Of a stretch of DNA of 14,923 nucleotides, positions 1 through 14,923 are shown piece after piece (position 1 is the first letter of the stretch; every line of letters begins with the position of its first letter). The DNA lies in NCBI GenBank assembly GCA_043819075.1, contig JBDRFE010000069.1, positions 1-14,923 on the forward strand, written 5' to 3'. Both the position numbers and the translations under genes were made by a program. Source of the DNA: an archaeon (GTDB lineage Archaea; Iainarchaeota; Iainarchaeia; Iainarchaeales; 1-14-0-10-31-34). The notes beneath the pieces are model-generated. The model had not been told where the DNA came from. It worked only from the letters and a program-made list of their open reading frames with translations, and searched no databases.

Positions 1-9
1 AATGAAAAA

Positions 10-906
10 ATGTATCCAATTAAAAAAAACACAGAAGACAACTGGTTATACTACGTGTTTGCTGGATTCAAAATTCATTATTATTCTTTAAAAAACCAGG
101 AAAAAAAAGTCAATAGCCTTGCTCTAATAGGCTCTGGAAACGGGGTCGATGCCATAGGCGCACACTACATATTCAAAGAAGCTAATCAAGTTTATCTTAC
201 TGACATTGATCCTGAAACATTGCCACTTGCAATTAAAAATGTCAAAAAAAACAAAAAACCAGGTTCAAATGTAAGCATAAACGGTTTTGTAGGCGATGTA
301 TGCCAACCGCTGGAACAAGAAAACATAAAAGCAGACATGATTTATGCAAATCTTCCTAATATCCCGCTTTGGAAAAACACCCAAACAAATGGGTTTGGGT
401 TATCAACATTTTATACGCCAAGAGAAAAAATCAGAGTGCCTTCAATTTTAAAAAAAAATCTCTTGGAACTGCAACTGCATTTTCTTAATTCCACAAAACC
501 ATGTTTAAATTCAGGCGGAAATGTAATCCAGGTCATAGGCGGGAGGTTTCCTGCAAAAAACTTCAAAATATTATTTGATGAAGCCGGGTTTAATCAACAA
601 CAGCTTTGTGCAGGATTAAAACTACAAACAGAAACAAGAGAAGTTATTAGTGGTTATTCTAAAGCAGAAAAAGAAAACAACAATGAATTCATTTTCTATG
701 ACTATAAAAATGCAGTTAAGTCTCTTAATAAAGGAGGTGAAACTAGTCTTATAACAGGCAAAAAAACAGATTATTTGGAAAAGCGTTTAAAGGATTATTC
801 TATGACTGCAACCCAAGCATTGAAAGAACACAAAAAAGGAATGAAAATAGGGCACACTTGTCATGTATTAAAGGGAAACTTAAAAAACAAAAAACAACCT
901 AAATAA
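10..906 (+). CDS. Class I SAM-dependent methyltransferase, MMT/MmtN (methionine S-methyltransferase)-like; may be 5'-truncated by the window edge
   Basis: Motif I LIGSGNG, acidic motif II TDID, GDV, and IYANLPNIP at the post-beta4 position. C-terminal motifs IGGRFP, LFDEAGF, KLQ, EFIFY and ATQA..KGMKIGH occur in the same order as in MMT/MmtN as I recall them. The frame is open to position 1 (aat gaa aaa atg), so the true start may lie upstream. Confidence 0.8.
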   Translation: MYPIKKNTEDNWLYYVFAGFKIHYYSLKNQEKKVNSLALIGSGNGVDAIGAHYIFKEANQVYLTDIDPETLPLAIKNVKKNKKPGSNVSINGFVGDVCQPLEQENIKADMIYANLPNIPLWKNTQTNGFGLSTFYTPREKIRVPSILKKNLLELQLHFLNSTKPCLNSGGNVIQVIGGRFPAKNFKILFDEAGFNQQQLCAGLKLQTETREVISGYSKAEKENNNEFIFYDYKNAVKSLNKGGETSLITGKKTDYLEKRLKDYSMTATQALKEHKKGMKIGHTCHVLKGNLKNKKQPK

Positions 907-908
907 CT

Positions 909-914
909 GGAGGT
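909..914 (+). promoter_or_regulatory. Shine-Dalgarno site (GGAGGT) for the 921 CDS
   Basis: GGAGGT lies 6 nt before the ATG at 921, just after the stop of the upstream gene, which suggests an operon. Confidence 0.75.
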
Positions 915-920
915 AATTAA

Positions 921-1598
921 ATGGAAAAAATGGATGCAGGAAAACTGTTTGACAACAGAGTAGAAGACTATGATTCATTTGTGAACAGCACAGTAATAGG
1001 CTACGAGAACGTTCTTGACTTGATAAAACAGCTCACAAAAATAATTGTAAAAACCGATTCACCTAAAGTTCTTGACTTAGGAGCAGGAACGGGAAACAGC
1101 AGCATGGCTATCTTGCATGCTTGCCCAAAAGCAAGTATTATTGGTTATGACCTGTCCAAGAAAATGGTTGAAAAAACAAATGAAAGATTCAGTAAATTTG
1201 ACTACAAAGGTGTTTGTGATAACGTACTTAACATAGATTTTGATAATGAATTTGATTTGATTGTGTCCTCGATAGTCCTTCACCATTTAAACGACAAAGA
1301 AAAACAAGAAGTGTATAAGAAAATATTCAAAGCCTTAAAAGGCAAAGGAGTATTTATTTTGGGTGATCTGATGCTGGCTGAAGACAACAGCATTAACAGT
1401 TTCCTGAAAGAACAATGGGAGAACCACATTGTTTATAAAAGAGGAGAAGAATATAAAAATAAAATATTTTCTCTTGAAGACAAACACCATCAATATGCTA
1501 GCCTGAATAACAACCTGAAATTTTTGAAGACAACGGGATTCAAAACAGATGTGATTTACAGGAAACTCAATACAGCAGTAATATTGTGTTATAAGTGA
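921..1598 (+). CDS. Class I SAM-dependent methyltransferase (CmoA-like/Methyltransf_25-type small-molecule MTase)
   Basis: VLDLGAGTG motif I, GYDLSKKM motif II, FDLIVSSIVLHHL, ALKGKGVFILGD; N-terminal FD...YD...Y pattern as in CmoA-like proteins; good SD. Confidence 0.9.
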   Translation: MEKMDAGKLFDNRVEDYDSFVNSTVIGYENVLDLIKQLTKIIVKTDSPKVLDLGAGTGNSSMAILHACPKASIIGYDLSKKMVEKTNERFSKFDYKGVCDNVLNIDFDNEFDLIVSSIVLHHLNDKEKQEVYKKIFKALKGKGVFILGDLMLAEDNSINSFLKEQWENHIVYKRGEEYKNKIFSLEDKHHQYASLNNNLKFLKTTGFKTDVIYRKLNTAVILCYK

Positions 1599-1780
1599 AA
1601 AAAAAAGCCATGCTGTTTTATCCAGATTTAAGTTTCCCTATATTTTTAACTATTATGTGCGTAAGTTGAATAAATGCAAGATTGTTTATGTTGTTAAACA
1701 GTACAAGAAAAGGGACTTGAGTAACCGACATAGCAAAGCACACATGAGTTTAAAACGTCAGACGGAACTATCGTAACCAG

Positions 1781-1797
1781 ATAAAAGAATTTAAAAA
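1781..1797 (+). promoter_or_regulatory. Putative archaeal BRE/TATA promoter for the hydrolase (leaderless)
   Basis: Purine-rich ATAAAAGAA followed by TTTAAAAA (1790-1797), which starts 29 nt before the ATG at 1819; no convincing SD. Confidence 0.45.
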
Positions 1798-1818
1798 CAA
1801 ACAAAAAAAGGTTAAATC

Positions 1819-2730
1819 ATGAAATCAAATCCCAGAAGGGAAGTTAATTTAGGGCAGCATAGGAAAAAAACTATGCTGGAACATTTAAAGAAAACAAAGG
1901 CAAGATTACTTGCCGGAAAGAAAAAAAGAAAACCTTTTTCTGTTCCCTGCAAAATAACACCAATAAAATATAATGGCCAAAAAGTTAACATACACTCAAC
2001 TTTTGTAAAAGGATTCAAAACACCCATAGTTTTTCTTACTGGATTGGGTTGTTCTCAATCAGATTTCAGAAAAGCGTTAGAATCAAAACAACTAAAAGGC
2101 CACACAATATTATTATTTGATTTTCCTGGGCAGGGAACAAACCCAAGGCTTCCGCCTTCAATTCCGCAAAGATTCAAGTTTACGATGGAAGAACTTGCAG
2201 AATTAACCAAAGCAATGCTCGATCATTATGGACTAAAAAAAGTAGCTTTAGTTGGGCACAGCATGGGAGGAATAGTAGGAAGAAAACTTGCTCAAAAACA
2301 CCCTGAAAGAATAGATTTTTTTGTTGATGTTGAAAGCCCATTAGATTTAAGCGAATGCCAAAGATGCATAAAAATAGCAAATGCAAGAGGACAGGAATAC
2401 CCTAAAACTATGACAGAAATAGCAAAAAATTATGCTACTGCAAACAAAAAAGCAGAAGCAAGGCATTCTAATACATTTAAGGGGGCATCACCCCAATCCA
2501 TCAGAAAATATTCCGAATCAATTATCAGGGAAATTGGTAAAAGACACCCGCTAAACGAACTGCCTAAAGGCAACTTTGCTTATTTTGCTGGAGAAAACAA
2601 TAATAGCCCCCAATTAAAGAAGCTTAAAGAAGAAGGGATTCAAGTAATAAGGATCCCAAATTCAGGACATTTTATCATGGAAGACAATCCTCAAAGTTTT
2701 TACGGAAAACTTGCACAACTAATAGGTTGA
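1819..2730 (+). CDS. Alpha/beta fold hydrolase with a Lys/Arg-rich N-terminal extension
   Basis: IVFLTGLG (oxyanion region), FDFPGQG, nucleophile elbow GHSMGG, C-terminal catalytic His in IPNSGHFIMEDNP. Confidence 0.93.
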   Translation: MKSNPRREVNLGQHRKKTMLEHLKKTKARLLAGKKKRKPFSVPCKITPIKYNGQKVNIHSTFVKGFKTPIVFLTGLGCSQSDFRKALESKQLKGHTILLFDFPGQGTNPRLPPSIPQRFKFTMEELAELTKAMLDHYGLKKVALVGHSMGGIVGRKLAQKHPERIDFFVDVESPLDLSECQRCIKIANARGQEYPKTMTEIAKNYATANKKAEARHSNTFKGASPQSIRKYSESIIREIGKRHPLNELPKGNFAYFAGENNNSPQLKKLKEEGIQVIRIPNSGHFIMEDNPQSFYGKLAQLIG

Positions 2731-2747
2731 TTCAGCTACAATAAAAC

Positions 2748-2761
2748 ACTTTCGGCAACCC
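2748..2761 (+). repeat. Left copy of a 14-bp imperfect direct repeat (ACTTTCGGCAACCC) flanking the Fic module
   Basis: 13/14 identical to ACTTTGGGCAACCC at 3881-3894. Confidence 0.55.
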
Positions 2762-2798
2762 CTAAATGAATGCATTTAAAGGCGGTTTTATATAAACC

Positions 2799-2807
2799 AA
2801 AAAAAAA
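2799..2807 (-). terminator. Oligo-T (T9) archaeal-type terminator for the Fic gene
   Basis: An A9 run on the + strand reads T9 on the - strand, about 10 nt after the Fic stop codon. Confidence 0.45.
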
Positions 2808-2816
2808 GCAAAAACC

Positions 2817-3752
2817 TTATTTCAAAAACTCTTTTATTTGCCTGAAAAATTCTTTTAACGTGAATTCAGCTAATTTTTTTGGCAGATCTTTTTCAACCGA
2901 GTCAATCAGCGTTTGAAAATACTGCTCTTTTTTTGATGAAATGTTAAGCAAAGGAAACCCATCATCAATCAGCGTCTTGTTTAAAATCAACCTGCAGATT
3001 CTTTTGTTGCCATCCAAAAAAGGATGAATTTTGTAAAGCCTGTAATGCGCTTGAGCCGCTTTTTCAATCGGATTAAGTTGAGTTGAATTATGCCACCCAA
3101 AAAATGATTCAAGCAATTTGTTAACCTTGCTATAATGCGGTGGCCTGAAAGCAATTTCAGTTCCAAACGGATTTTTTTCGTCTCTTTTTTGCAAATAAAC
3201 CTGCCCAGCTCTAATCTTTCCGGGATTTTTTCCTTCAAAGCTTGCCATAATCGTATTATGCAATTCAAGCAGATAATGCTTGTCCAATACACGTTTTTCT
3301 TTTATTGACTCAACCGCTTTAAGCATATTTTTGCTTACCTGCTCACGCATGCTAAACTGGTTTTCTTTCCCAAAAGCCTGCCTGACATCAGATAAGCTGA
3401 CATCAACATCCTCAGTAGTCAAGGTTGTTAATGTGAAAAGAATTGTGCTGTCAACTTCATATTTTCGCTTTTGAACAGCAGAAAGCGAAGCAAACTTCTT
3501 GTTAAATGCATTCCTGAAAAGCAGTGCTTTTATCAGGTCGTCTTTGGAAATGAATTCATTGAAATAATTCTTTCCTGAAAGTTTTGAAACTATTTCAGCC
3601 CTGAAAGATTGCCCAATCCTTGCAAGCTCACTTTTTGACGGCTTTTTTAAGCCAACATATTTGCTGAAAGTCTTTGATTTGGTTGCAATGAAATAACTTA
3701 AGTCCAAATAATAGTATTTTCTGCCTTTAACCTGTTTCGTGCGAAGCGCCAT
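2817..3752 (-). CDS. Fic (Fido) domain protein with an N-terminal basic beta-sheet extension
   Basis: Fic motif HPFLDGNKRICR (2991-3026); LELH and PGKIR elements; degenerate inhibitory helix TLTTED. Start moved from 3788 to the ATG at 3752 (MALRTKQVKGRKYYYL) because a TATA box ends 24 nt upstream and the extra 12 codons lie in the operator palindrome. Confidence 0.93.
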   Translation of the reverse strand: MALRTKQVKGRKYYYLDLSYFIATKSKTFSKYVGLKKPSKSELARIGQSFRAEIVSKLSGKNYFNEFISKDDLIKALLFRNAFNKKFASLSAVQKRKYEVDSTILFTLTTLTTEDVDVSLSDVRQAFGKENQFSMREQVSKNMLKAVESIKEKRVLDKHYLLELHNTIMASFEGKNPGKIRAGQVYLQKRDEKNPFGTEIAFRPPHYSKVNKLLESFFGWHNSTQLNPIEKAAQAHYRLYKIHPFLDGNKRICRLILNKTLIDDGFPLLNISSKKEQYFQTLIDSVEKDLPKKLAEFTLKEFFRQIKEFLK

Positions 3753-3758
3753 ACTAAT

Positions 3759-3853
3759 AGTTAGGCTGATAAAAGTATTTAAAACCATCAGCCTAACTTT
3801 TCAATCAACTGGTTAGGCTGATAAAAACCGGGCAGAGCATCAGCATAACTTTT
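3759..3853. repeat. Two tandem inverted repeats GTTAGGCTGAT-N16-ATCAGC(C/A)TAAC with a 52-bp period; putative operator
   Basis: Arms at 3760-3770/3787-3797 and 3812-3822/3839-3849. Both spacers are exactly 16 nt but differ in sequence. Left arms are followed by AAAA and right arms by TTTT. Confidence 0.85.
3776..3783 (-). promoter_or_regulatory. TATA box (TTTAAATA) of the Fic gene
   Basis: Consensus archaeal TATA on the - strand, 24-31 nt upstream of the ATG at 3752, inside the spacer of the first palindrome. Confidence 0.65.
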
Positions 3854-3880
3854 TTTGCCAGGCTTTCCAGACAGCAGCGA

Positions 3881-3894
3881 ACTTTGGGCAACCC
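3881..3894 (+). repeat. Right copy of the 14-bp imperfect direct repeat (ACTTTGGGCAACCC)
   Basis: 13/14 identical to 2748-2761. Confidence 0.55.
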
Positions 3895-4074
3895 GCTTAA
3901 CTTTGCGTTAGTACTCTCTTCTTTGCCTTAAAGCTAAATAGTTTGCATAAAACCCAATTTGTTTCAATAGAAGCCTTAAATGCTTGAAGATAAATGGTTA
4001 CATTATAACTCAACCCTATTTAAAGGCTTAAAAGGGTTAAAAAAAAATGTTTTCCTAAAACTCAAACAAAAACT

Positions 4075-4090
4075 TCAACTAATTGGTTGA
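4075..4090. promoter_or_regulatory. 16-bp near-perfect palindrome TCAACTAATTGGTTGA, possible regulator binding site
   Basis: 7 of 8 pairs are complementary; it lies about 90 nt upstream of the 4181 start. Confidence 0.35.
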
Positions 4091-4180
4091 TTGCCTTTAA
4101 CTTAAGCCATAAAAACAAATAAAATAGTGTTTGTAAATAAATTACTGTAATATCTATAAAGAACTTAAGAAGGGGGGTCA

Positions 4181-7100
4181 ATGAAAACAGGCTTTAATGC
4201 AATAACAGCAGTCATGCTTTTTTTTCTTCTTGTTTCAGCGACTGCAGCAGGCAATGGCTTTATTGTCCCGTTATTTGATTCACAAAAAATTTCTGGTTTA
4301 ACTGTCCAAAAACAACCAGAAATAAAAGCTGAACTTAAGCCAAACCTTGAAACACTAAACATTACAGTACAGGAATTTAATGCAATAATACAGGAAACCA
4401 GCATTAAAAAAAGTTTTAGTGTTCAAGGAAAACAAGCTGTTTCAAAAGATTCCACTGAATGCTCTGCTTTAAGTGAAAACCAGAAAATTCCTGCACCAAC
4501 ACAGGCATTGCTTGACATTTCCTGTCAAGGGCAAGCATCTATTGGAGGGTGCTCTGGATTAAATTGCAGTGGCATTCAATCACTTTTATGCAGCTATTGC
4601 TCTAGCGTGAACCCTTCAATAAACCATTTATCTTCCTGCACTCCAAGTTCCTGTCCTTCAGGGTACTTTGACCAAGGAGTTGTCTGTCAACCATCCGGAG
4701 CATGCAATAACTGTGACGGCTCTAACTGCGACTACGACTGTGCCCATCAATCACTTTCATGCACTAGAACCTGCACAACAAATCCCTGCACTAACCCGGA
4801 TTACCCTAATTACTGTGACGGCTACTGCTGGAGTAATTGCTCTAGTGTTGGATTATACGGAGGAAAATGCTGTAATGGTTCCTGGAGATGCTGTAATTCT
4901 TCTAGTTACCCTCAATTATGCTGCCCTGACAGCGGAAACCCAATAATGTGCACAACCCAAAACGATAGCTGTCTTTCAAACGGGTGCTCAGTTAATTATC
5001 CATACAAATGCAACAACAAGTGCTGGAGTTGCCCTACAGGAACAAATTTATGTTGTCCTTCAAGCGGAGACCCATCTCATTGTTGCGGGACAGGACAAGT
5101 CTGCCAAAGCAGCGGAACATGTTATACTCCTCCGACAAATGCAAGAATTTACGGTTACTTAAAAGACCATTACGGCAATCCCCTGCCCGGAAGAACAATG
5201 AGATTAACTGATTGCTCTGACAATACACAATACTCTGATACAACTGAATCAAATGGTTACTGGGAAATAATTGCTCCGGCAAATTCATTCAAGCTAAAAA
5301 CTGATGTGTGGTGGGGTACAATTGTTTGGAATGTCAGTGGACAAGAATGCTATTCTTATAGTGCACAGGATTACTTTCTTGGAGACCTGCAGGTAAACAC
5401 TGAAACAGTAAATTACGGTTACCTTAAAAACGAATACGGAAACGGCTGGAACAATATTTTAGTTGAACTAACCAGCTGTTCAGATAATGTAATAATTTCA
5501 GACAGAACTAATTTAGATGGCTATTTTAATCTCAGGGCATTAAAAGGAAACTACAAGCTAAAAACCCACATGCCTTGGGGTGTAATTGAATGGACTGTTA
5601 ATGAAGTAGAATGCCCATTATATTACTGGAATGAATGGAATATTGGAACACTTCCAATAAACGCTAACGCAATTGTTTCAGGGCAAATTGTCGGGCACCA
5701 AAATAACGGCTTGCAGGGAGTTGAAGCCAAATTAACTCAATGCTTTGGCTCTAATTCATATTCTGATTTCACTGACTTACAAGGAAACTTTTCTGTTAGC
5801 GCGCCAAAAAATTACTATAAATTCCAGACAGTGTTTGGCTGGGGAACAATAAAATGGATTATTGACAACAATGAATGCAATTTATTTACAGGAAACAATA
5901 TTAGCTTGGGAACCCTTCCAAAAATTGATTCAACAATCCACGGTTACTTCCATGATTTGGATAATAATCCTATAAGCGGGTTAAGAGTGGAATTATTTGA
6001 TTGCTCTGATAATTTTGTTGCTTATGTCACTACAAGTTCCACTGGATTTTTTTCAATTTACAATGATGCAGGAAAATACCAGTTAAAAGTTGTTATCCAA
6101 GGTTACAGGATTCCTTTAACTGATTTGCAGGGAAACTCTTGTTTTGTTTTTTTCGGAGACCTTGATTTAGGTACATTGAATATAAATCCTTCAATTAACT
6201 GCTCTGGATTCAATAACACCTGCTATAACAATAACTGGAGACTGTTTTCCTGTTACTTTGATTCAACTGTTCCTTCTTGTGTATGCTATTATGAAGTGTG
6301 CGAGTTTGGCTGCACTGAAAGACAAAATTATTGTAATGCAGGGCAACAGGAATTAATTAAAATTGACGTTGACAGCATAAACAACAATTTTAATGCATTG
6401 CCTGGAGCAAGAATTTACTTGGACAATGAATTCAAGGGAACAACTGATTCTTTCGGAAAAAAAGATGTTTATGCTTTTCCTGGATTCAGAACAATAAAAG
6501 TTTTGTGCCCTGACAGCAGTTTTTGCTCTGAAAAAGGAATTTACCTGAATTCAACTGCATGGGAATACTTTGACTGCTCTTGCGGAATACAAAAAGGGGA
6601 TATTCAAGTAAATGTAGATAATGCAAACGATTATCCTGTTGCCAATGTTTATGTTTTTTTGGATGAAGATTACTCTAAAGAAGCAGGATTAACCAATGCT
6701 TTTGGTTTTACTTATATTGAAGGCATTGCCTTTGGAAGCCATAGAATTGATATAAGATATAAAGTGACAAACCCAGATTACGCAGGAGATTACCAAATAA
6801 CACAATACATTAACTTAAATCAGCCAAAACAAACTGTTGATTTTACTGCAATAATATCATCTTCTTATATAATATCTGATTCAGGAAACTCTGCTGACAA
6901 AAACTTTGGTGCACAAGCTGTTCCGATAGTTGCAGTTGCTTTAGCGGCAGTTGATGTTATTTCTGTAGGATTAAGTACAGAAGAATACTGCAAATGCATA
7001 AACAATGTTGACGGTGAAGCATTTGGCGGCGGATACGAAAACTGTTTTAATTCAATAAAGCAATGCAGTGGAAACATGAAAAGCTGCATTGATGTTATTA

Positions 7101-7984
7101 GAGAAGAAGCAGGTCCAACAGCAAAAAAATGCTGGTTTGAAGAAATAATGCTGGCAGGAGATGCGGCTTCACCTTTAATTCCATTAGGTATGGTAGGGCA
7201 CGGTGCTGTTGCTGTTGGAAAAAGTTCAGCAAAAACAGTGAAAATAATTGACAGTATAGGCAAAGGAATAGGAAAAATTGCCACAGACTTATGGGCTTAC
7301 GGAAAACAAGGAATAGATTATTTTGCCAGATGGCTTGACAATACAGGGGTTTTTAAAAAAGCGGTTAATCTTGGATTTGATACAACAAAATGGGGTGATG
7401 AAGCAATAGAAGGCTTGGAATACTTTGTTAAGTCGTCTCCTGACGGACAGAAAGCAGCAAAAAGAATTGCAAAAGAGTTGGGGGAAGATACTGCTGAAGA
7501 AGCTTTTAAAGCACTAACTAAACTGGAAAAAAAAGGAATAGATACAACAAAATTAAGAAAGGCGATTTATGATTCTGCTATAGACTTAGATAATCAAGTG
7601 GTAAAATACGGCGAACAAAGCGCACAAGCAAACATTGCCAGAGGCTCATTAAATGGCTATTTGTTTGAAGCAAAAGCCAGTTCGCATACTCGTTTTATAG
7701 ATGATGTTAGTGAAATTAGCCATGTTGTAAAAGATCCTGCCACTGGTTTAGACATCACTGATTTTGATGCCATAAGAAAAAATAATTCAATTTTAGAATT
7801 TAAAACCAGTTATCCGACCGCATACGAAATAAAAAGCAAGATAAACAAATTATATAAAGCTAAATTAATTGAAAACAGGGGAAGCATTACATTTGTGTTT
7901 GAAAACCAGCCTCTGCCAGAAGCGATCAATGTTCTCCAAGAGGCAGTGAACCAGGGAAAAATTTTAGGATGGGAAATATTATGA
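4181..7984 (+). CDS. Large secreted modular protein, putative polymorphic toxin with a C-terminal PD-(D/E)xK (REase-fold) domain
   Basis: Signal peptide MKTGFNAITAVMLFFLLVSATAA. Cys-rich region ~4460-5122. Four carboxypeptidase-regulatory-like repeats ~5135-6187. Two PEGA-like domains ~6350-6850. Hydrophobic AVPIVAVALAAV from 6917 and Gly/Ala-rich LIPLGMVGHGAVAVGK. Terminal GYLFE...TDFD...LEFK motif set. G-rich SD at 4172-4178. Confidence 0.75.
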   Translation: MKTGFNAITAVMLFFLLVSATAAGNGFIVPLFDSQKISGLTVQKQPEIKAELKPNLETLNITVQEFNAIIQETSIKKSFSVQGKQAVSKDSTECSALSENQKIPAPTQALLDISCQGQASIGGCSGLNCSGIQSLLCSYCSSVNPSINHLSSCTPSSCPSGYFDQGVVCQPSGACNNCDGSNCDYDCAHQSLSCTRTCTTNPCTNPDYPNYCDGYCWSNCSSVGLYGGKCCNGSWRCCNSSSYPQLCCPDSGNPIMCTTQNDSCLSNGCSVNYPYKCNNKCWSCPTGTNLCCPSSGDPSHCCGTGQVCQSSGTCYTPPTNARIYGYLKDHYGNPLPGRTMRLTDCSDNTQYSDTTESNGYWEIIAPANSFKLKTDVWWGTIVWNVSGQECYSYSAQDYFLGDLQVNTETVNYGYLKNEYGNGWNNILVELTSCSDNVIISDRTNLDGYFNLRALKGNYKLKTHMPWGVIEWTVNEVECPLYYWNEWNIGTLPINANAIVSGQIVGHQNNGLQGVEAKLTQCFGSNSYSDFTDLQGNFSVSAPKNYYKFQTVFGWGTIKWIIDNNECNLFTGNNISLGTLPKIDSTIHGYFHDLDNNPISGLRVELFDCSDNFVAYVTTSSTGFFSIYNDAGKYQLKVVIQGYRIPLTDLQGNSCFVFFGDLDLGTLNINPSINCSGFNNTCYNNNWRLFSCYFDSTVPSCVCYYEVCEFGCTERQNYCNAGQQELIKIDVDSINNNFNALPGARIYLDNEFKGTTDSFGKKDVYAFPGFRTIKVLCPDSSFCSEKGIYLNSTAWEYFDCSCGIQKGDIQVNVDNANDYPVANVYVFLDEDYSKEAGLTNAFGFTYIEGIAFGSHRIDIRYKVTNPDYAGDYQITQYINLNQPKQTVDFTAIISSSYIISDSGNSADKNFGAQAVPIVAVALAAVDVISVGLSTEEYCKCINNVDGEAFGGGYENCFNSIKQCSGNMKSCIDVIREEAGPTAKKCWFEEIMLAGDAASPLIPLGMVGHGAVAVGKSSAKTVKIIDSIGKGIGKIATDLWAYGKQGIDYFARWLDNTGVFKKAVNLGFDTTKWGDEAIEGLEYFVKSSPDGQKAAKRIAKELGEDTAEEAFKALTKLEKKGIDTTKLRKAIYDSAIDLDNQVVKYGEQSAQANIARGSLNGYLFEAKASSHTRFIDDVSEISHVVKDPATGLDITDFDAIRKNNSILEFKTSYPTAYEIKSKINKLYKAKLIENRGSITFVFENQPLPEAINVLQEAVNQGKILGWEIL
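5135..6187 (+). repeat. Four tandem ~88-aa protein repeats (prealbumin-like/carboxypeptidase regulatory-like beta sandwich)
   Basis: Each unit reads xxG(Y/Q)...N(P/G)...L(T/F)xC...T...G(Y/N/F)(W/F)...(Y/F)(K/Q)(L/F)...C...(L/I)G(T/D)L, with two conserved Cys per unit. Confidence 0.85.
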
Positions 7985-9135
7985 GTGACCATTTGACAGC
8001 AAAATTTGATACTGAAGCAACTGATTGCAACCAAGATAATATAAGGAAGAAAATTTTGTATGAGGCAGTTGAATTGTTTCTTGCAATAGAAGAATATATT
8101 TACGGAATAACTATTGGCGGCATAAAAAGCTACGACTATGAAACAAAAAAATACAAGCACTACTATCTTTCTGGAGAACTGGAACTCAAAAAAGAAAAAT
8201 TTGAAAAATTCTATGAACAATATGAAGAACAGCCTGAAACAAGAAAAAATCGTATAAAAGAAAAAAAATTTTTTAAAAAAACAGCAATTCCTTTTGGAGA
8301 ATACAACCCGCTTAAAATAGATTGGGCAATTTCTTGGCACCAAGACAAAAAAAATAAAATGACCATAAAATTTCGTTCGTCACCAGGCGACATTCCCTCT
8401 TTATGCCAAAAAGAGGAGTCTTTATTTGGATATGGTTATTCCCCAAAAAAACCAGTAACCAACGAATTTATTTCATTCCTGAAACAAGCAGTTGAAAAAT
8501 TAAATGGCAAAAACATAGCATTTGGCATATTCCATGATGATGTGAATTTGGCTGAATTTCCCGGAAAAGACAGCGTGGAAGAAATTTATCCAACACAAGA
8601 AAAAGACGAAATCCGGGTGGAAAGAATAATGGAACACAAACTTGGCATGTGCGGAGCAGATGCGCTTCTAGAATTAATGGAGGAAAAAAAGATTTCAGAT
8701 TTTTGGGATCAAAGTGTATTCCATAAAGGGGGAAACGATTTTAGAGGAGACTTTAAAACATGGTATTCAATTAATGAACCATTAGAGGAAGTAAAAAAAG
8801 AAAAAAGAAGATGCATTGAAATAGAACTTGGAATAGACCTAAGAAAAGACTTTGATTGTGCTAAAACTAAGGAAAAAATAAAAAAAGTGGTTACAGAACA
8901 TTTAAAATCAAAGGAAAGAATTTCTGAAATAATGGATCATGAATTAGATAAAGAAACTGAAAAAATGATCAAAGAAAAAGAAATAGAGCACTGGAGTGAA
9001 GACGCAAAACAAGGGCTTAAGTCTTTGATGAAAATAGGTGGCAAACAAGGAATTTCAAGCATCTTTAACACAATGAAATATGTTGAAAAAGAAAAGCAAA
9101 AAACTGGAAAGAAAACAGAAGGTGAAAAAAAATGA
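7981..9135 (+). CDS. Hypothetical cytoplasmic protein, candidate immunity protein
   Basis: The ATG at 7981 forms an ATGA 4-bp overlap with the stop of the upstream gene, so it is preferred over 7969. No signal peptide or TM segment; K/E-rich C-terminal half. The immunity role is inferred from position only. Confidence 0.65.
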   Translation: MSDHLTAKFDTEATDCNQDNIRKKILYEAVELFLAIEEYIYGITIGGIKSYDYETKKYKHYYLSGELELKKEKFEKFYEQYEEQPETRKNRIKEKKFFKKTAIPFGEYNPLKIDWAISWHQDKKNKMTIKFRSSPGDIPSLCQKEESLFGYGYSPKKPVTNEFISFLKQAVEKLNGKNIAFGIFHDDVNLAEFPGKDSVEEIYPTQEKDEIRVERIMEHKLGMCGADALLELMEEKKISDFWDQSVFHKGGNDFRGDFKTWYSINEPLEEVKKEKRRCIEIELGIDLRKDFDCAKTKEKIKKVVTEHLKSKERISEIMDHELDKETEKMIKEKEIEHWSEDAKQGLKSLMKIGGKQGISSIFNTMKYVEKEKQKTGKKTEGEKK

Positions 9136-9168
9136 AAAAATGCCGCCAGAATATTGGGGGGAGTTGAA

Positions 9169-9903
9169 GTGAGCAAAAACATAATTGCCTACAGTTTTTC
9201 TTTGAATAAAATAAGCAATATATTAAAGAGCCAAAAAAAAGACTGCGGCGAAGAAATATTTTTTGTCTTATCTAGAGGGCTCATCAAAAACAAAAAACTA
9301 AAAAACGAAATTATAAGAAGGCTAAATAAATGCATCTTTAACGGAATTCTAAACCTAGAAAAATTTTGGGAATATTTGTATTCTGTCGGCCCTCTGGAGG
9401 AATTAAATTCAATGCAATTTCACGAACAAATAAAATTTTTGGAAGACAACGAAAATACTGTGGGAATACTTGCAGATAAAAAATGGGCAGACGTTGCCAA
9501 AAAAGAGTTTGAAAAAGAAGATTTAAAATACACTATATTTAATCCTTGGAGGAGTTCTGAAAGCAGAGAAAGAGAAGCATACAATATATTATATGAAGAA
9601 CTAAAAAAAGAGGGTTGCGAATATTATCATTCTGTTATAAGAGAAACAGACACAAATAAAATCATGAAAAAAGCAGTTAAGGAATTTCATATAGATAACA
9701 CTAATGGCAATTGGTTGACAAACATCAACAAAATAAATGATTTCAATAAATTCTCAAAAAACACAAAAAAAGAATTGGCTAAAAAAATTCAAAACATAGA
9801 ATGGATTCCGCGACAAGAAAACAAAAAAATACTGGAACCAGTAAAACTTATCAAAAATGCACTAAAATGTAAGGAGGACACAATTCATGAAATGCTTGAA
9901 TAA
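9169..9903 (+). CDS. Hypothetical cytoplasmic protein, candidate second or orphan immunity protein
   Basis: Long open frame; the GTG at 9169 is preceded by GGGGGGAG (9156-9163), so it is preferred over the TTG at 9154. Hydrophilic, no recognised motif. Confidence 0.6.
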   Translation: MSKNIIAYSFSLNKISNILKSQKKDCGEEIFFVLSRGLIKNKKLKNEIIRRLNKCIFNGILNLEKFWEYLYSVGPLEELNSMQFHEQIKFLEDNENTVGILADKKWADVAKKEFEKEDLKYTIFNPWRSSESREREAYNILYEELKKEGCEYYHSVIRETDTNKIMKKAVKEFHIDNTNGNWLTNINKINDFNKFSKNTKKELAKKIQNIEWIPRQENKKILEPVKLIKNALKCKEDTIHEMLE

Positions 9904-10678
9904 AAAAAATTCCAAAAACTTTGTTTTGATTTTCCTGATTTTAAGCCTGGCTTTTTCAGGAGCTGAAACAGAAATGACAGGCCAAATACAGCCTTCAGGC
10001 GGGCTGGAAGTTACACCACAGATTACAATAAATATTCCTTCAGAGGAAATGGAAAAAGAAATTTACACTATTGAAATAACAAAAGAAAACCACGTAATAA
10101 TTGCAGCAGGAATGGAAGTGCAGGAATACAATGCAACAGCAACAGTAACTGAAAAAGAAACAGCAAACCAAAACACTTACACTCCTTCAACCGCAGGCAG
10201 TGTTATAGGAACAGCAAAAAAACAGCCTGCAAGCCAGAAAATAAATGAATTAACTGTAACAGAAGAAGAAGATTCAACTACAATAGAATTCATTTTAATG
10301 GATGAAAAAGAAAACCAGATTAAAATAGAAAAAACAAAAGAAAAAATTTTTTTGGAATCCAACGGAGTTACAGCTGAAACAAAAGAAAAAATAGAAATAA
10401 CAGGCAATGGAATAACAATAGAAAAAAACGGAACAAAAAAAGAATTAAAACTGCTGCCTGACACAGCAAGAGAAAGAGTTTCAGGGTTAATTGATGAAGT
10501 AAAAGAAATTGAGTTACTGGCACTGGAAAAAGAAACAGTCTATAAAACAAGTGGAACAAAAAACGGGAAACTGCTTGCATTAATTCCAGTTAAAATGGAA
10601 ATAAGCGCTGAAGTGAACACTGAAACAGGCAAAATAAAAGAAACAAAAAAGCCTTGGTGGAGTTTTCTAGTGATTTAA
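9887..10678 (+). CDS. Secreted or surface protein with a C-terminal PepSY-like 'LLALIPV...VNTETG...KKPWW' domain
   Basis: SD AGGAGG at 9872-9877; basic N-region plus hydrophobic core FVLIFLILSLAFSG; E/K/T-rich body; C-terminal pattern I recognise from uncharacterised DPANN/CPR proteins. Confidence 0.75.
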   Translation: MKCLNKKNSKNFVLIFLILSLAFSGAETEMTGQIQPSGGLEVTPQITINIPSEEMEKEIYTIEITKENHVIIAAGMEVQEYNATATVTEKETANQNTYTPSTAGSVIGTAKKQPASQKINELTVTEEEDSTTIEFILMDEKENQIKIEKTKEKIFLESNGVTAETKEKIEITGNGITIEKNGTKKELKLLPDTARERVSGLIDEVKEIELLALEKETVYKTSGTKNGKLLALIPVKMEISAEVNTETGKIKETKKPWWSFLVI

Positions 10679-10679
10679 A

Positions 10680-11096
10680 ATGAAATCAGGAAAATTTGAA
10701 AACTGGTTTGGGCTTAGCAAAGAAAGCTTTAAGTCATGCTTAAAGTACGCTCTAATTCTTGGGGCAACACAAGTATTGCTTGGGATACTAAGTTTTATGG
10801 CTTTCGAGTATATTAGTGCTTTTGCTTTGATTATTTTTGCGGTTATTAATTTTGCTGCCACCTTTACAATTGTTTTCTTTGCATTAAAAAGCATTTTAAA
10901 TGCATTTCCAAAAGAAAACAAACTGTATTTAGCTTTGTACATTTTTGGAATAAGTTTAATTGTTTTTTTTGTTGCTGCTTCATTAATTGCCGGGCAGTTA
11001 AGCAATCCTCGCGGGACAGTCATTCAGCTTTTAGCAACAGCTCTTGCCATAAAAATGACAAAAACTCCTAAACAAAAACTAAAGGAGGAAAAATGA
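10680..11096 (+). CDS. Small integral membrane protein (about 4 TM helices)
   Basis: Four hydrophobic stretches with Lys-rich ends; 1 nt after the upstream stop and directly abutting the downstream start. Confidence 0.8.
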   Translation: MKSGKFENWFGLSKESFKSCLKYALILGATQVLLGILSFMAFEYISAFALIIFAVINFAATFTIVFFALKSILNAFPKENKLYLALYIFGISLIVFFVAASLIAGQLSNPRGTVIQLLATALAIKMTKTPKQKLKEEK

Positions 11097-14000
11097 ATGA
11101 AACCCGGAGTTTATGTTTCAGTTGCATTGGTTTTGCTGGTTTTATTGGCTGGTGCATTAAATGCAACAGCATTTTATGATTCAATGATTCCGTTAAATTC
11201 TTTATCTGATAAAGAAACAGTTTACAGCCAAAATAATCCATCAAACAATTTACTGGATTCAAAAATACATAAAGACCTTCAAAACAAAATAAGTGAAGCA
11301 CCAAAAGAAAAAACTGTTACACTATTCAAAGCCACAAATGAAAATGAACTGGATTCAATGGAAGCATTAATTGAATCCGCTGGAGGAAAAGTGTTAAGCA
11401 AAAACAAGATTGGAGATGTAATAACTGCAGAAATTCCTGCTGAAAAAATACCTGAAATAGTATTCAGTGACTCAGTTGAAAGTGCCTGGCCTGACAGAGT
11501 ATTTCATGCAACATTAGAAGAAAGCGTGCCACAAATTAATGCCCCTTTTATGTGGGAAAATGATTTGAATGGAAGCGGAATAAAAATAGCTGTACTTGAC
11601 ACAGGAATTGATTCTTTTCATCCAATGCTTCAGGGAAAAATAATCCTGGAAAACACTTTCACTGGAGAAAGCGCTCAAGATGTTTTAGGGCACGGAACCC
11701 ATGTAGCAGGAATAATTGCCGGAACAACAGAAAACGGAGGAAAATATAATGGTGTTGCCCCAGGAGCGTTATTGTTGAACGTAAAAGTGCTGGACAACAA
11801 CGGCTATGGAAGTGAATCAGAAATAATTAATGGAATTAACTGGGCTGTTGACCCAGACGGAAATTCCGAAACAGATGACGGAGCAGACATAATAAATATG
11901 AGTTTAGGAGGCCCTTACGCTGACCTGAATTCACCAATTGTTTCAGCTATAAAGGATGCAATTCAAGCAGGTGTTATAGTTGTAGTTGCTTCTGGAAACT
12001 GTGGTTCAGGATGCCCTTCAAGCAACTGCCATGGATTCATTGGAGTTGAAACTCCCGGAATTTCTCCTGAAGCAATAACTGTGGGGGCAGTAGACAAGCA
12101 AAACAATTGGGCTTGCTTTTCAAGCGGGGGAACAATAAGCGAAAACATTAAACCAGATGTGGTTGCTCCCGGAGTAAACATTAATTCGTCTGTTCCAGAA
12201 GGTTATGCAGCATATAGCGGAACAAGCATGGCAACACCTCATGTTGCCGGAGCAGCTGCACTGCTTTTGCAGTCAAATGAAAATCTTTCCCCAGAAGAAG
12301 TAAAATATGTTTTGGAAGCAACTGCACAAAAATTAGGCGAACCGGGAAAAGACATTAAATATGGTTCTGGATTAATTGATGCAAGCAAATTCATTCCACC
12401 AAACGTAAACAAATTACTTAAATATAAAGTTGAATTACCTGAAATAGTTTATTTATATGATGAAATAATTATTTCTTTGACTCCTTTGGCTGACAGCATT
12501 GAAAGCGCTTTTGCAGTAATAAAAGACCCTGATAACACAGAATATAAAATTCAGATAACAAACACAAGCCAAAACAGCTGGCAGGGAATCTTTAGCAACA
12601 CTGGAATCACAGGAATTTATTCTGTTGATATTTTCATTTCAAACAAAGTTGGAAACATAACAGAATTCAACGAAAATTTTGGTGCGATAAGATTTGATTC
12701 AAACACTGCATTCATTGAACAAATAATTGCGTCAAACAATGTTTCTTTTGACGAAAATTTTTCTGCAACAATTGTATTCAAAAATAACGGCAGTTCTGAT
12801 GTTAATGCAATAATTGAAGCCCAGATAATTGATGAAAACATTTTAATGGCTTCAATTGAAAAAAATGTTTTTGCAGGGCCAAACAGTGAAAACTACGTTG
12901 ATTTTTTATTTGGTCCCCTAGAAACTCTTGGGTCAAAACAAATTCTTGCAATAGCTTCTTTTGAAGGAGAATACCACACAAAAGAAAAAACTTTTACTGT
13001 AACAGATAACACTGAACCAGTAATTGATTCAGTTAACTTTGAAAGCAGTGTAAACAAAAACCAGCCGGCTGTAATGGAATTAATAGTAGAAGATACAAGT
13101 GATGTCAACGGAAACCTTGTTTTAACAAATTCTCTCAATCAACTCCAGACAATCCCTTTGAAGCTTGTCTGGGGAACCGGAACACAAAAAAAATTAACTG
13201 CAACATATTACGGAACAAACTTGTTAGGTGAAAATGATTTTTATTTAGAAGCATGCGATTCAGTTGGATTATGCACTTCTTCAGAAAATTATGGCTTTAC
13301 AGTGCAGGACTGCAATAACAGGCATGTTTTAATTGTATCAGAAAATGAAAGCAGTGAACCAGAAAGGTTTACAAGTTTTTTGGAAAACTATTGTGTTTCA
13401 TTGCTGAACACCAAAAAAAGCAGTTTGCCTGAAGATTCTTCTTTTTTTGGGAACTTTGAGTTAATTATCTGGCTTACAGGAACAAGGTACAACGAAAACG
13501 TAAGCAATGAAGCAGCTGCATTGCTTTTGGATTCAAATACAAATATTGTTCTGGAAGGAGAGGATATTGCATTCAACCATTTTTCTGATGAATTCATGGC
13601 AAAAGTTGCTAATGCAGTCTTTGACAAAGAACTTTTACTAAAGGATTACAATGGAAGTGTCCAGCTTGAAATAACCAGAAACCATCCTTTATTTAATTCA
13701 CTGGCTGTTTTGGATTTCAATCCAGTTTTATCACTTTTCCCTGATTCATTGATTCCAGTAAACAATGGAGTTGAACTTGCTTCATGGAATGCTGACGGCA
13801 ATAAAAGCAGTGCAATAATTGCAAGTAATACAGGCAGTAAAAAAACCTTGTTTTTGCCTTTCAGTTTGCAGGCATTAGGAAGCAAACAACAAATTTTTAT
13901 CCAGAATATGCTTGACTGGATGTTAACAGATTCTGAGCAAGCAGATTTGGTTCCGAAACTGGTTGAAGTTTATCCTTCAATAGAAGGAAGCAATTTCATT

Positions 14001-14923
14001 GTCCTTAAAATAGAAAACAATGGCGCAGCTAATGCGGTCAATGTGAGAACAGACATTTATTCAGATAATGTTTTAGAAAACACTTTGTTTGTTGAAAGCA
14101 TTCCTGTTTTCAGTTCTGTAACTCGCGCAGTTTCTTTGCAGTTGCCTGCAGGAGAACACGAAATAAAGGTTTCAGTTAATCCTCTCTTTGAAGTAACAGA
14201 AACAAATTATTTGAATAACACTTTATCAGAACAAATTAATTTTATTCCTTTTTCCGCAGACTTGACAGTAAAATCTGTTTCATCTTCTAATGCAAGCAAT
14301 ACAGTAATTAATGCAGAAATCCAGAACATTGGCGGCTCTAAAGCAGAAAATGCTTTGATTCAAGTGTTTTATAATGGCACAAAAGTTTCTGAAAAAACGA
14401 TTACAGTTAATTCAAGAGAAACAAAAACAGTTACTGCAACCACAAGCAAAAAAAACGGAGTTAATTTAATTGAAGTAAAAGTTAATCCAGAGCAAACTGT
14501 TTTAGAAGCAGATTATTCAAACAACAGCCTTTCAAAAGAGAATTATATATGCAGTAAATCAAATATTCTTGTGGTAAACGACAATGATTCAGAGAATTAT
14601 TCAACTGACAATCCAAGCAGTGTTTCTGCAATAGAAGAAATATTAAAAAACAATGGTTATTGTTTTGAGGTTTGGAGTGAAAAAGAAAAAGGTGTTCCTT
14701 TATTAGAGCACTTGAATGAATTTGAAATAGTTATCTGGAGTGCAGGAAATTACTGGAATACTGTAATAGATGAAAATGACATGCAATTGCTGCAGGAATT
14801 TAATGGAAACATTATTTTTGAAGGAGCAGACATTGGGTTTGACCATGCAAATGAACTGTTTTTGCAGGAAAAACTGCATGCCTCACTAGACAAAGACTTA
14901 ATTGCACAAGAACAAGAATCATT
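11097..14923 (+). CDS. Secreted subtilisin-like (S8) serine protease with prodomain, Ig-like/CARDB domains and repeated GATase-like domains; 3'-truncated by the window end
   Basis: Not in the ORF track because there is no stop in the window. SD AGGAGG (11083-11088), ATG 11097, signal peptide MKPGVYVSVALVLLVLLAGALNA, I9-like prodomain. Triad IAVLDTGID (Asp 11598), HGTHVAG (His 11691), SGTSMATPHVAG (Ser 12225); oxyanion ASGN. CARDB-like ADL...N.G...VNP...E..Y.NN at ~13941-14240 and ~14256-14550. The same frame reads sensibly in the last lines of the window. Confidence 0.95.
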   Translation, partial: MKPGVYVSVALVLLVLLAGALNATAFYDSMIPLNSLSDKETVYSQNNPSNNLLDSKIHKDLQNKISEAPKEKTVTLFKATNENELDSMEALIESAGGKVLSKNKIGDVITAEIPAEKIPEIVFSDSVESAWPDRVFHATLEESVPQINAPFMWENDLNGSGIKIAVLDTGIDSFHPMLQGKIILENTFTGESAQDVLGHGTHVAGIIAGTTENGGKYNGVAPGALLLNVKVLDNNGYGSESEIINGINWAVDPDGNSETDDGADIINMSLGGPYADLNSPIVSAIKDAIQAGVIVVVASGNCGSGCPSSNCHGFIGVETPGISPEAITVGAVDKQNNWACFSSGGTISENIKPDVVAPGVNINSSVPEGYAAYSGTSMATPHVAGAAALLLQSNENLSPEEVKYVLEATAQKLGEPGKDIKYGSGLIDASKFIPPNVNKLLKYKVELPEIVYLYDEIIISLTPLADSIESAFAVIKDPDNTEYKIQITNTSQNSWQGIFSNTGITGIYSVDIFISNKVGNITEFNENFGAIRFDSNTAFIEQIIASNNVSFDENFSATIVFKNNGSSDVNAIIEAQIIDENILMASIEKNVFAGPNSENYVDFLFGPLETLGSKQILAIASFEGEYHTKEKTFTVTDNTEPVIDSVNFESSVNKNQPAVMELIVEDTSDVNGNLVLTNSLNQLQTIPLKLVWGTGTQKKLTATYYGTNLLGENDFYLEACDSVGLCTSSENYGFTVQDCNNRHVLIVSENESSEPERFTSFLENYCVSLLNTKKSSLPEDSSFFGNFELIIWLTGTRYNENVSNEAAALLLDSNTNIVLEGEDIAFNHFSDEFMAKVANAVFDKELLLKDYNGSVQLEITRNHPLFNSLAVLDFNPVLSLFPDSLIPVNNGVELASWNADGNKSSAIIASNTGSKKTLFLPFSLQALGSKQQIFIQNMLDWMLTDSEQADLVPKLVEVYPSIEGSNFIVLKIENNGAANAVNVRTDIYSDNVLENTLFVESIPVFSSVTRAVSLQLPAGEHEIKVSVNPLFEVTETNYLNNTLSEQINFIPFSADLTVKSVSSSNASNTVINAEIQNIGGSKAENALIQVFYNGTKVSEKTITVNSRETKTVTATTSKKNGVNLIEVKVNPEQTVLEADYSNNSLSKENYICSKSNILVVNDNDSENYSTDNPSSVSAIEEILKNNGYCFEVWSEKEKGVPLLEHLNEFEIVIWSAGNYWNTVIDENDMQLLQEFNGNIIFEGADIGFDHANELFLQEKLHASLDKDLIAQEQES

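Follow-up and report, generated by a model that had tools for sequence, protein, structure and literature searches.

A probable S8-linked polymorphic toxin locus in an archaeon of the order Iainarchaeales

S8-linked polymorphic toxin systems (S8-PTS) occur in Bacillales and Actinobacteria, according to the accessible part of PMC9424270, and in the S. aureus system cleavage by the S8 protease is required for toxin activity and exposes a membrane-active helix (PMC13556192, accessible part). Polymorphic toxin systems were called rare in archaea in the available text of PMC3482391, and archaeal ones were described as predicted but uncharacterised in 2021 (PMC8416519, available text). Our literature search returned no account of an S8-linked toxin system of DPANN archaea; Makarova 2019 (mBio), which lay outside this search, may already list such loci, and the accessible part of 10.64898/2026.07.27.741052 does not mention DPANN. 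Here, we analyze a 14,923-bp stretch of archaeal DNA (the window), which is an entire contig (G000:C69) from a 1.24-Mb genome of the order Iainarchaeales with 35% guanine-plus-cytosine (GC) content, and which carries a run of six genes (g1–g6) beginning with a toxin-like surface protein and ending with an S8 subtilase. The run is very probably a polymorphic toxin locus.

Toxin precursor and exchange of its tip

The gene g1 (4181..7984, + strand) encodes the predicted polymorphic toxin precursor of 1267 residues (PF13620, E 6.5e-20). It starts with a Sec-type signal at about residues 1–23, judged by eye from the hydrophobic N-terminus, followed by a Cys-rich region at residues 100–330 (Cys counts), a stalk of CarboxypepD_reg-like beta-sandwich repeats and a conserved two-domain core at residues 726–910. 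Residues 913–1000 comprise a hydrophobic helix and Cys-helices, and the nuclease tip lies behind them. g1 therefore combines the secretion signal and repeat stalk of polymorphic toxins, and its toxin-like C-terminal domain varies on a conserved stalk.

The tips are exchanged by recombination at fixed stalk points between near-identical strains. The homologue P0018 (MFH1895714.1) is 94–100% identical to g1 over residues 1–800 and 16–34% beyond, which places a recombination point after Cys799 (6577..6578, + strand), past which sister strains carry a different C-terminal third. L009, a same-genus homologue, is mostly 60–88% identical up to residue 1113 and 28–38% past it. The same exchange is seen in assembled contigs of two sequencing runs, one of which may be the window's own source. 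Specifically, one contig of run X1 matches 3999–6577 with 13 differences, continues with 1756 other letters in place of the window sequence, returns to a 70-nucleotide match inside g3 (9514–9583, 13 differences), and after 347 other letters rejoins the window at 9930 in g4. Positions 6578–9929 are thus replaced by a different cassette in a single contig, while the flanks 1–4025 and 10488–14923 are near-identical in this run. At low depth, run X1 also contains short stretches identical to the window allele, and run X2 has both the window allele at 7780–8851 and a loose end at 6577 whose translation agrees with P0018 at 9 of 10 residues, so that each run contains both alleles.

For a wider comparison of tails, a core profile was built from six sequences covering g1 residues 726–970 and matched 1066 representatives at E<=0.001; 60 toxin-like proteins hand-picked from the best 150 of these, together with g1, gave 61 tails, which group into 13 clusters; among these are HEXXH tails, hydrophobic tails, two nuclease groups and a group with a WEH motif. 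The WEH-motif group is one that we take to resemble BECR RNases. HEXXH metallopeptidase-like tips are present in P0059, P0114, L068 and L096, whereas the C-terminus of P0004, P0006 and P0045 is a hydrophobic tail with Cys residues, possibly membrane-active. The conserved stalk with variable tips anticipated in a preliminary description of this DNA is borne out by the 94–100% stalk identity and unrelated tail of P0018, the cassette swap in X1 and the tail clusters; rather than a constant C-terminus with unvarying downstream genes, both the tails and the first genes behind them vary.

As judged from an AlphaFold2 model of g1 residues 900–1267 (368 residues), which is confident over the last 200 residues, the tip is predicted to have a PD-(D/E)xK nuclease fold, located at 7520..7984 (+ strand) with a predicted local distance difference test (pLDDT) score >90. 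PD-(D/E)xK proteins rank first in VIA-align, with 1y88 as the top match (Z 10.6, root-mean-square deviation 2.4, 99 aligned residues), followed by 2vld (Z 9.2), 8bao (Z 8.8) and CdiA-CT (Z 7.6, 4zqu, and Z 7.1), while TseT is found only at Z 6.3. The predicted active site, E1163, D1196, E1206 and K1208, fits the PD-(D/E)xK motif; the Lys is nearly invariant across 14 tips, and the Asp and Glu vary in some relatives.

A conserved hydrophobic helix (residues 913–927; 6917..6961, + strand) follows a polar linker in g1, and 53 of 56 g1 homologues likewise show a polar linker past the last beta-sandwich, then a hydrophobic helix and Cys-linked helices. The linker often ends in Pro-Gln or Pro-Glu, and the helix usually lies 320–425 residues from the C-terminus; equal hydrophobicity occurs in just 2 of 363 control stalk windows. 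The linker before residue 913 is accordingly a candidate protease release point, its exact site being a guess, and the helix a candidate membrane-entry element, because S8-PTS cleavage exposes a membrane-active helix (PMC13556192, accessible part).

The S8 protease and the genes behind the toxin

The gene g6 (11097..14923, + strand) encodes a secreted multidomain S8 subtilase of at least 1275 residues (PF00082, E 6.9e-64, plus CARDB) with a signal, a prodomain-length N-terminus, Ig-like domains and, by motif scan, an intact D168/H199/S377 triad; about 150 residues precede the catalytic domain and >800 follow it. The subtilisin named in the preliminary description is thus present, with the correction that the gene has no stop and is cut by the contig end. 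A whole, partial or remnant S8 homologue adjoins the toxin homologue in 30 of 34 other distinct loci, in accordance with the recurring S8 neighbourhood proposed earlier and with the operonic S8 linked to toxin and immunity genes that characterises S8-PTS. It lies downstream of the toxin in 29 of the 30; three of the four misses are contig ends and one is real (L014). The 34 loci come from the archaeon's own phylum, Micrarchaeota, Woesearchaeota and Candidatus (Ca.) Methanoperedens, and one of them (L090) was found via its S8. The set excludes the weak core matches L042 and L044–L056, members of a different surface-protein family that lacks the toxin layout; it also excludes L039, an unclear case at a contig end, along with L058, L061, L063 and the short contigs L074–L078 of the Methanosarcinales order. 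Pattern scans with g1 alone gave no loci. The two subtilase genes found in the archaeon's own genome both lie inside toxin loci, the second of which (L008:1478-14039, G000:C55) differs in tip class and also holds a mini-toxin, an RDD gene and two candidate immunity genes. The stalk of L008 is 51% identical to that of the L023 toxin, whose hydrophobic tip is unrelated.

The reverse test used a midpoint-rooted tree of 51 S8 rows. One side of 42 rows (support 99/98) contains 26 rows that are toxin-adjacent by profile and 3 by inspection, together with 4 contig-end rows and a 9-row clade (100/100), and the 9 rows outside this side have no toxin core within 6 kb upstream. In the 9-row clade, five complete genes, from one taxonomic family of the archaeon's own order, are S8–stalk–tip fusions with a Cys-rich stalk and variable tips, followed by small immunity-like genes (L091:1939-6888, L092:13562-18316, L094:5236-10866, L095:1171-6132 and L096:565-6351). 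Their tips and partners match those of stand-alone toxins, as L094 does L090 (partners E 1e-33) and L091 does L033, and the fused tip of L096 matches the HEXXH tip of L068. This fusion, seen at the level of genes, is the best evidence that the protease may work on the toxin, and processing of the toxin precursor by S8 appears fairly likely.

Of 45 toxin/first-gene pairs, 40 have the first downstream gene at a distance of -23 to +12 nucleotides from the toxin. Among tip-similar pairs, 42 of 75 also have similar first genes, versus 111 of 915 other pairs, with a permutation p of 2e-4 that is overstated by kinship, since kin among the 45 pairs are not independent. At the family level, the adjacent immunity gene therefore co-varies with the tip, as the earlier expectation of variable downstream genes would have it. 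For the commonest first-gene family, structural models show the Imm52/TsiT immunity fold: all 8 Foldseek matches at E<=0.001 are TsiT/Imm52, PA0821 or BPSL2088, VIA-align gives Z 11.5, 10.8 and 9.9 with the next at 6.0, and 4 of 18 members weakly match Pfam TsiV. Its profile found no PDB match by sequence.

In the window, g2 (7981..9135, + strand, 384 residues) is lost together with the tip in the alternative allele of run X1. It is a singleton, with no homologue or family found in our searches, and is presumed from its position to be the cognate immunity partner that arrived with the present tip. ESM Atlas gave only leads below 0.9 for g2 and none for g3, and g3 does not match the Imm52-fold profile. 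A likeness of g2 residues 160–195 to the Imm52-fold family, noted by eye, was dropped, as it had no score in the profile comparison. Over residues 143–156 of g2 (8407–8448), 12 of 14 positions agree with a stretch that covers and runs past the stop of the L015 immunity gene (L015:4889-4930), suggesting a possible recombination relic, and loose ends at 8191 and 8343 hint at a mosaic g2.

The next gene, g3 (9169..9903, + strand, 244 residues), starts with GTG behind a G-rich ribosome site and is 27% identical over 136 residues (E 4e-8) to the gene placed first behind the toxin of L015, whose tip is of the same class as that of P0018. A tip of P0018 length needs 1410 letters of the X1 cassette, which leaves 346 before the match to g3, and the match itself lies 345 letters into g3. 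In the X1 strain, a g3-like gene would therefore start directly behind the other tip, although the cassette letters themselves were not seen. Because of this match and the first position of the g3 homologue in L015, g3 reads as a retained antidote for the other allele and is probably an orphan immunity gene for the alternative (class B nuclease) tip rather than a second cognate one. The two immunity candidates of the preliminary description thus both stand behind the toxin, while the second is better read as an orphan. Orphan cassettes, as mini-toxins and immunity arrays, are also present in L008, L014, L018, L023, L037, L040 and L075.

Accessory genes, gene context and distribution

The gene g4 (9887..10678, + strand, 263 residues) encodes a secreted KPWW protein with a PepSY-like C-terminal domain. 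PepSY is matched by 7 of 14 family members (best E 2.3e-5), g4 itself giving no match, and the family profile found no PDB match by sequence. These matches point to a protease partner instead of the anchor proposed earlier, and g4 is probably a secreted PepSY-type partner acting as chaperone or inhibitor of S8. KPWW genes are present in 13 of the 34 loci (12 by profile plus the cut gene of L009), in 10 of them upstream. A 556-residue KPWW-ending paralogue lies outside any toxin locus (L016:1998-3668, G000:C67), and the decayed region L063:10090-11542 of a same-genus genome holds a KPWW gene and a 218-residue S8 stub, preceded by a weakly AbiEi/AbiEii-like pair. The small membrane protein g5 (10680..11096, + strand, 138 residues) matches no family above the cut-off; hydropathy gave three segments rather than the four expected. 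The slot ahead of S8 is filled elsewhere by RDD (11 loci), Yip1 (6) or nothing, and this membrane gene is interchangeable and accessory. Of the neighbourhood foreseen for other genomes, S8 recurs widely and KPWW in part, while g5 has no homologue in the 34 loci.

All six genes lie on the + strand, and the five junctions re-derived from the open reading frames agree with the coupled, co-oriented run described earlier: an ATGA overlap of g1 and g2 at 7981–7984, 33 nucleotides between g2 and g3, a 17-nucleotide overlap of g3 and g4 (9887–9903), a 1-nucleotide gap between g4 and g5, and none between g5 and g6. Tight coupling of this kind is, taken alone, often seen in small genomes; it is the repeated finding of S8 beside toxin homologues that goes beyond chance. 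In the run, Pfam names the CarboxypepD_reg-like repeats of g1 and the S8 and CARDB domains of g6, and nothing else. A promoter and terminator scan with bacterial-type models remained at chance level. Divergent from the run lies a Fic-domain gene (2817-3788), whose start is spanned by a perfect 11-bp inverted repeat with a 14-bp spacer (3787-3822), possibly an operator. Two S-adenosylmethionine methyltransferases and an alpha/beta hydrolase (10-906, 921-1598 and 1819-2730) are apparently unrelated to the system.

The spread of the system is patchy, as in conflict systems. The core profile matched 33 of 215 genomes of the own phylum (own genome and weak other-family matches included), 6 of 401 of the Woesearchaeota-record phylum, and 8 of 284 in the order of Ca. 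Methanoperedens, 3 of which have toxin–immunity layouts; three weak matches in that order (L084–L086) showed no toxin layout, and G333 and G457 were not inspected. In Ca. Methanoperedens, L067:8084-19788 carries toxin, immunity, KPWW and S8 genes in the window's order between the methanogen-type housekeeping genes aRF1, RFAP synthase, hisG and thrS. The island has 39–43% GC against 46–51% in the adjacent flanks, with one 2-kb bin at the far locus end at 37%. The S8 of this island shares 47% identity with g6 and lies in the same starred 11-row clade of the S8 tree. The likely explanation is transfer between Ca. Methanoperedens and DPANN lineages. Two further genomes of that order hold tandem short signal–core–tip genes with immunity genes (L075, L076, L077 and L078); these arrays, which bear the same tips and belong to G245 (which has MCR alpha) and G253 (where MCR alpha was not found), lie on short, possibly mis-binned contigs.

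Proposed mechanism and rival explanations

We favor, with good confidence, a polymorphic toxin system through which the archaeon would compete with its close relatives and with neighbours of other kinds, and in which S8 would cut the precursor. As suggested by its signal peptide, g1 would be exported by Sec, and its disulfide-rich and beta-sandwich stalk would display or target the exchangeable C-terminal module. The co-exported S8 may cut the precursor, with the polar linker ahead of residue 913 as the most likely site, and free a fragment of about 355 residues, with the hydrophobic helix first and the PD-(D/E)xK nuclease last, which could then enter a cell. The producer would be protected by a cytoplasmic protein encoded directly behind the tip, presumably g2 by its position; g3 may be kept as protection against the sister allele, and the PepSY-like KPWW protein may restrain or chaperone the protease.

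Several observations weigh against this reading. Foldseek with the whole 368-residue model gave no match at E<=0.001, and Pfam named no toxin family for any of 14 tips. g2 has no relatives in our searches and does not match the Imm52-fold family profile, and L069, the closest tip (~58% identical), has a first gene of that family, unlike g2. On the side of the protease, L014 is an assessable toxin locus without S8, L012 holds S8 remnants only, L063 holds a KPWW gene and a truncated S8 with no toxin, and the pattern scan did not find the catalytic Ser motif in the fused L095 and L097; g6, with its many extra domains, exceeds the needs of a simple maturase. Its size, CARDB and Ig-like domains, its absence from L014 and its downstream position, unlike the upstream one in the S8-PTS as far as described, would suit an S8 that hitch-hikes as a surface protease, or is an independent weapon against S-layers or incoming rival toxins, beside a real toxin–immunity pair and without processing g1. 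We consider this unlikely, as the linkage is kept over four archaeal groups, a sister clade joins S8, stalk and tip in one protein, and the conserved linker–helix junction is present.

The toxin might instead be aimed at a host or prey cell to which the archaeon attaches, S8 and nuclease breaching or disabling it, as the long adhesin-like stalk would allow; the four-gene order shared with the Ca. Methanoperedens contig, with its related S8, also implies lineages in contact. This seems quite improbable, since kin conflict would be expected to go with immunity genes that are tightly coupled and co-vary, and with arrays of orphan immunity genes, and near-identical strains with different alleles share samples; moreover, some Diapherotrites, the phylum (Iainarchaeota) to which we assign the archaeon, may be free-living and host dependence is not established for the group (PMC6349945, accessible part). 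The strain-level swapping thus favors competitors over a host, and competitors are the most likely target. Organisms with reduced genomes can use extracellular nucleases and proteases to feed, and a variable surface-protein cluster for adhesion, scavenging of DNA and protein or VARTIG-like self-recognition would need no toxic function at all; hypervariable Ig modules without toxins are known in Thermococcales (PMC8416519, available text). Such a cluster is very improbable here, for scavenging would not call for swapping one enzyme fold for an unrelated one, or for a cytoplasmic Imm52/TsiT-fold partner that varies together with the tip.

The usual picture of DPANN cells is one of reduced symbionts that play a passive part. 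On the competitive reading, 1-Mb genomes devote at least 10 kb, sometimes twice, to an actively recombining weapon, whose strain-level allele exchange is visible in groundwater data. The locus supplies candidate toxin–immunity pairs and a candidate partner for an orphan DPANN PepSY-like family, and it can serve as a marker for genes that pass between DPANN and Methanosarcinales. An unlikely further reading is a DPANN-wide protease-activated weapon that is also exchanged with the methane-cycling Methanosarcinales, which may be its targets or its users; if true, the L067-type kit would mark a physical interaction between DPANN and methanotroph, with an arms race across it.

Compared with polymorphic toxin systems in general, as far as PMC3482391 describes them, the archaeal loci share the signal–stalk–tip layout, the immunity gene behind it and orphan cassettes. 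They also share with Tox-REase tips paired with Imm52, such as TseT–TsiT of P. aeruginosa in the descriptions available, the nuclease fold and an immunity family of Imm52/TsiT fold. They differ in having no Pfam Tox-REase match and, in the mapped loci, no parts of type V, VI or VII secretion systems (T5SS, T6SS, T7SS) or Rhs. VARTIG of Thermococcales (PMC8416519, available text) is likewise a large secreted archaeal Ig-like protein with a recombining C-terminus and variable downstream genes, whereas its tips are hypervariable Ig domains and those here are enzymes with immunity partners and S8, the predicted tip of g1 having a restriction-endonuclease fold. If g4 belongs to the DPANN PepSY-like cluster cls.004634 (PMC6393860, accessible part), the locus suggests its missing protease. 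The closest likeness is to S8-PTS, which, in the published text available, share the Sec-exported toxin, variable tips, neighbouring immunity gene and operonic S8, here predicted from the genes; the separate versus fused protease pair also mirrors them. However, S8-PTS have a single-domain S8 without prodomain, mostly upstream, whereas the archaeal S8 is multidomain, has a prodomain-length N-terminus and is downstream or fused, at 1275 to >4000 residues beside toxins of 900–1950. The archaeal toxins have Cys-rich and beta-sandwich stalks, an architecture that appears to differ from the signal–BetaH–toxin layout of S8-PTS in a comparison made without a BetaH profile; the pre-tip region of g1 is modelled as helices and a short beta meander at pLDDT <70. 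PepSY-like and RDD/Yip1 partners are added. With neither the single-domain S8 nor its upstream position present, the locus is best read as an archaeal S8-linked polymorphic toxin system that is analogous to bacterial S8-PTS and not a member of them.

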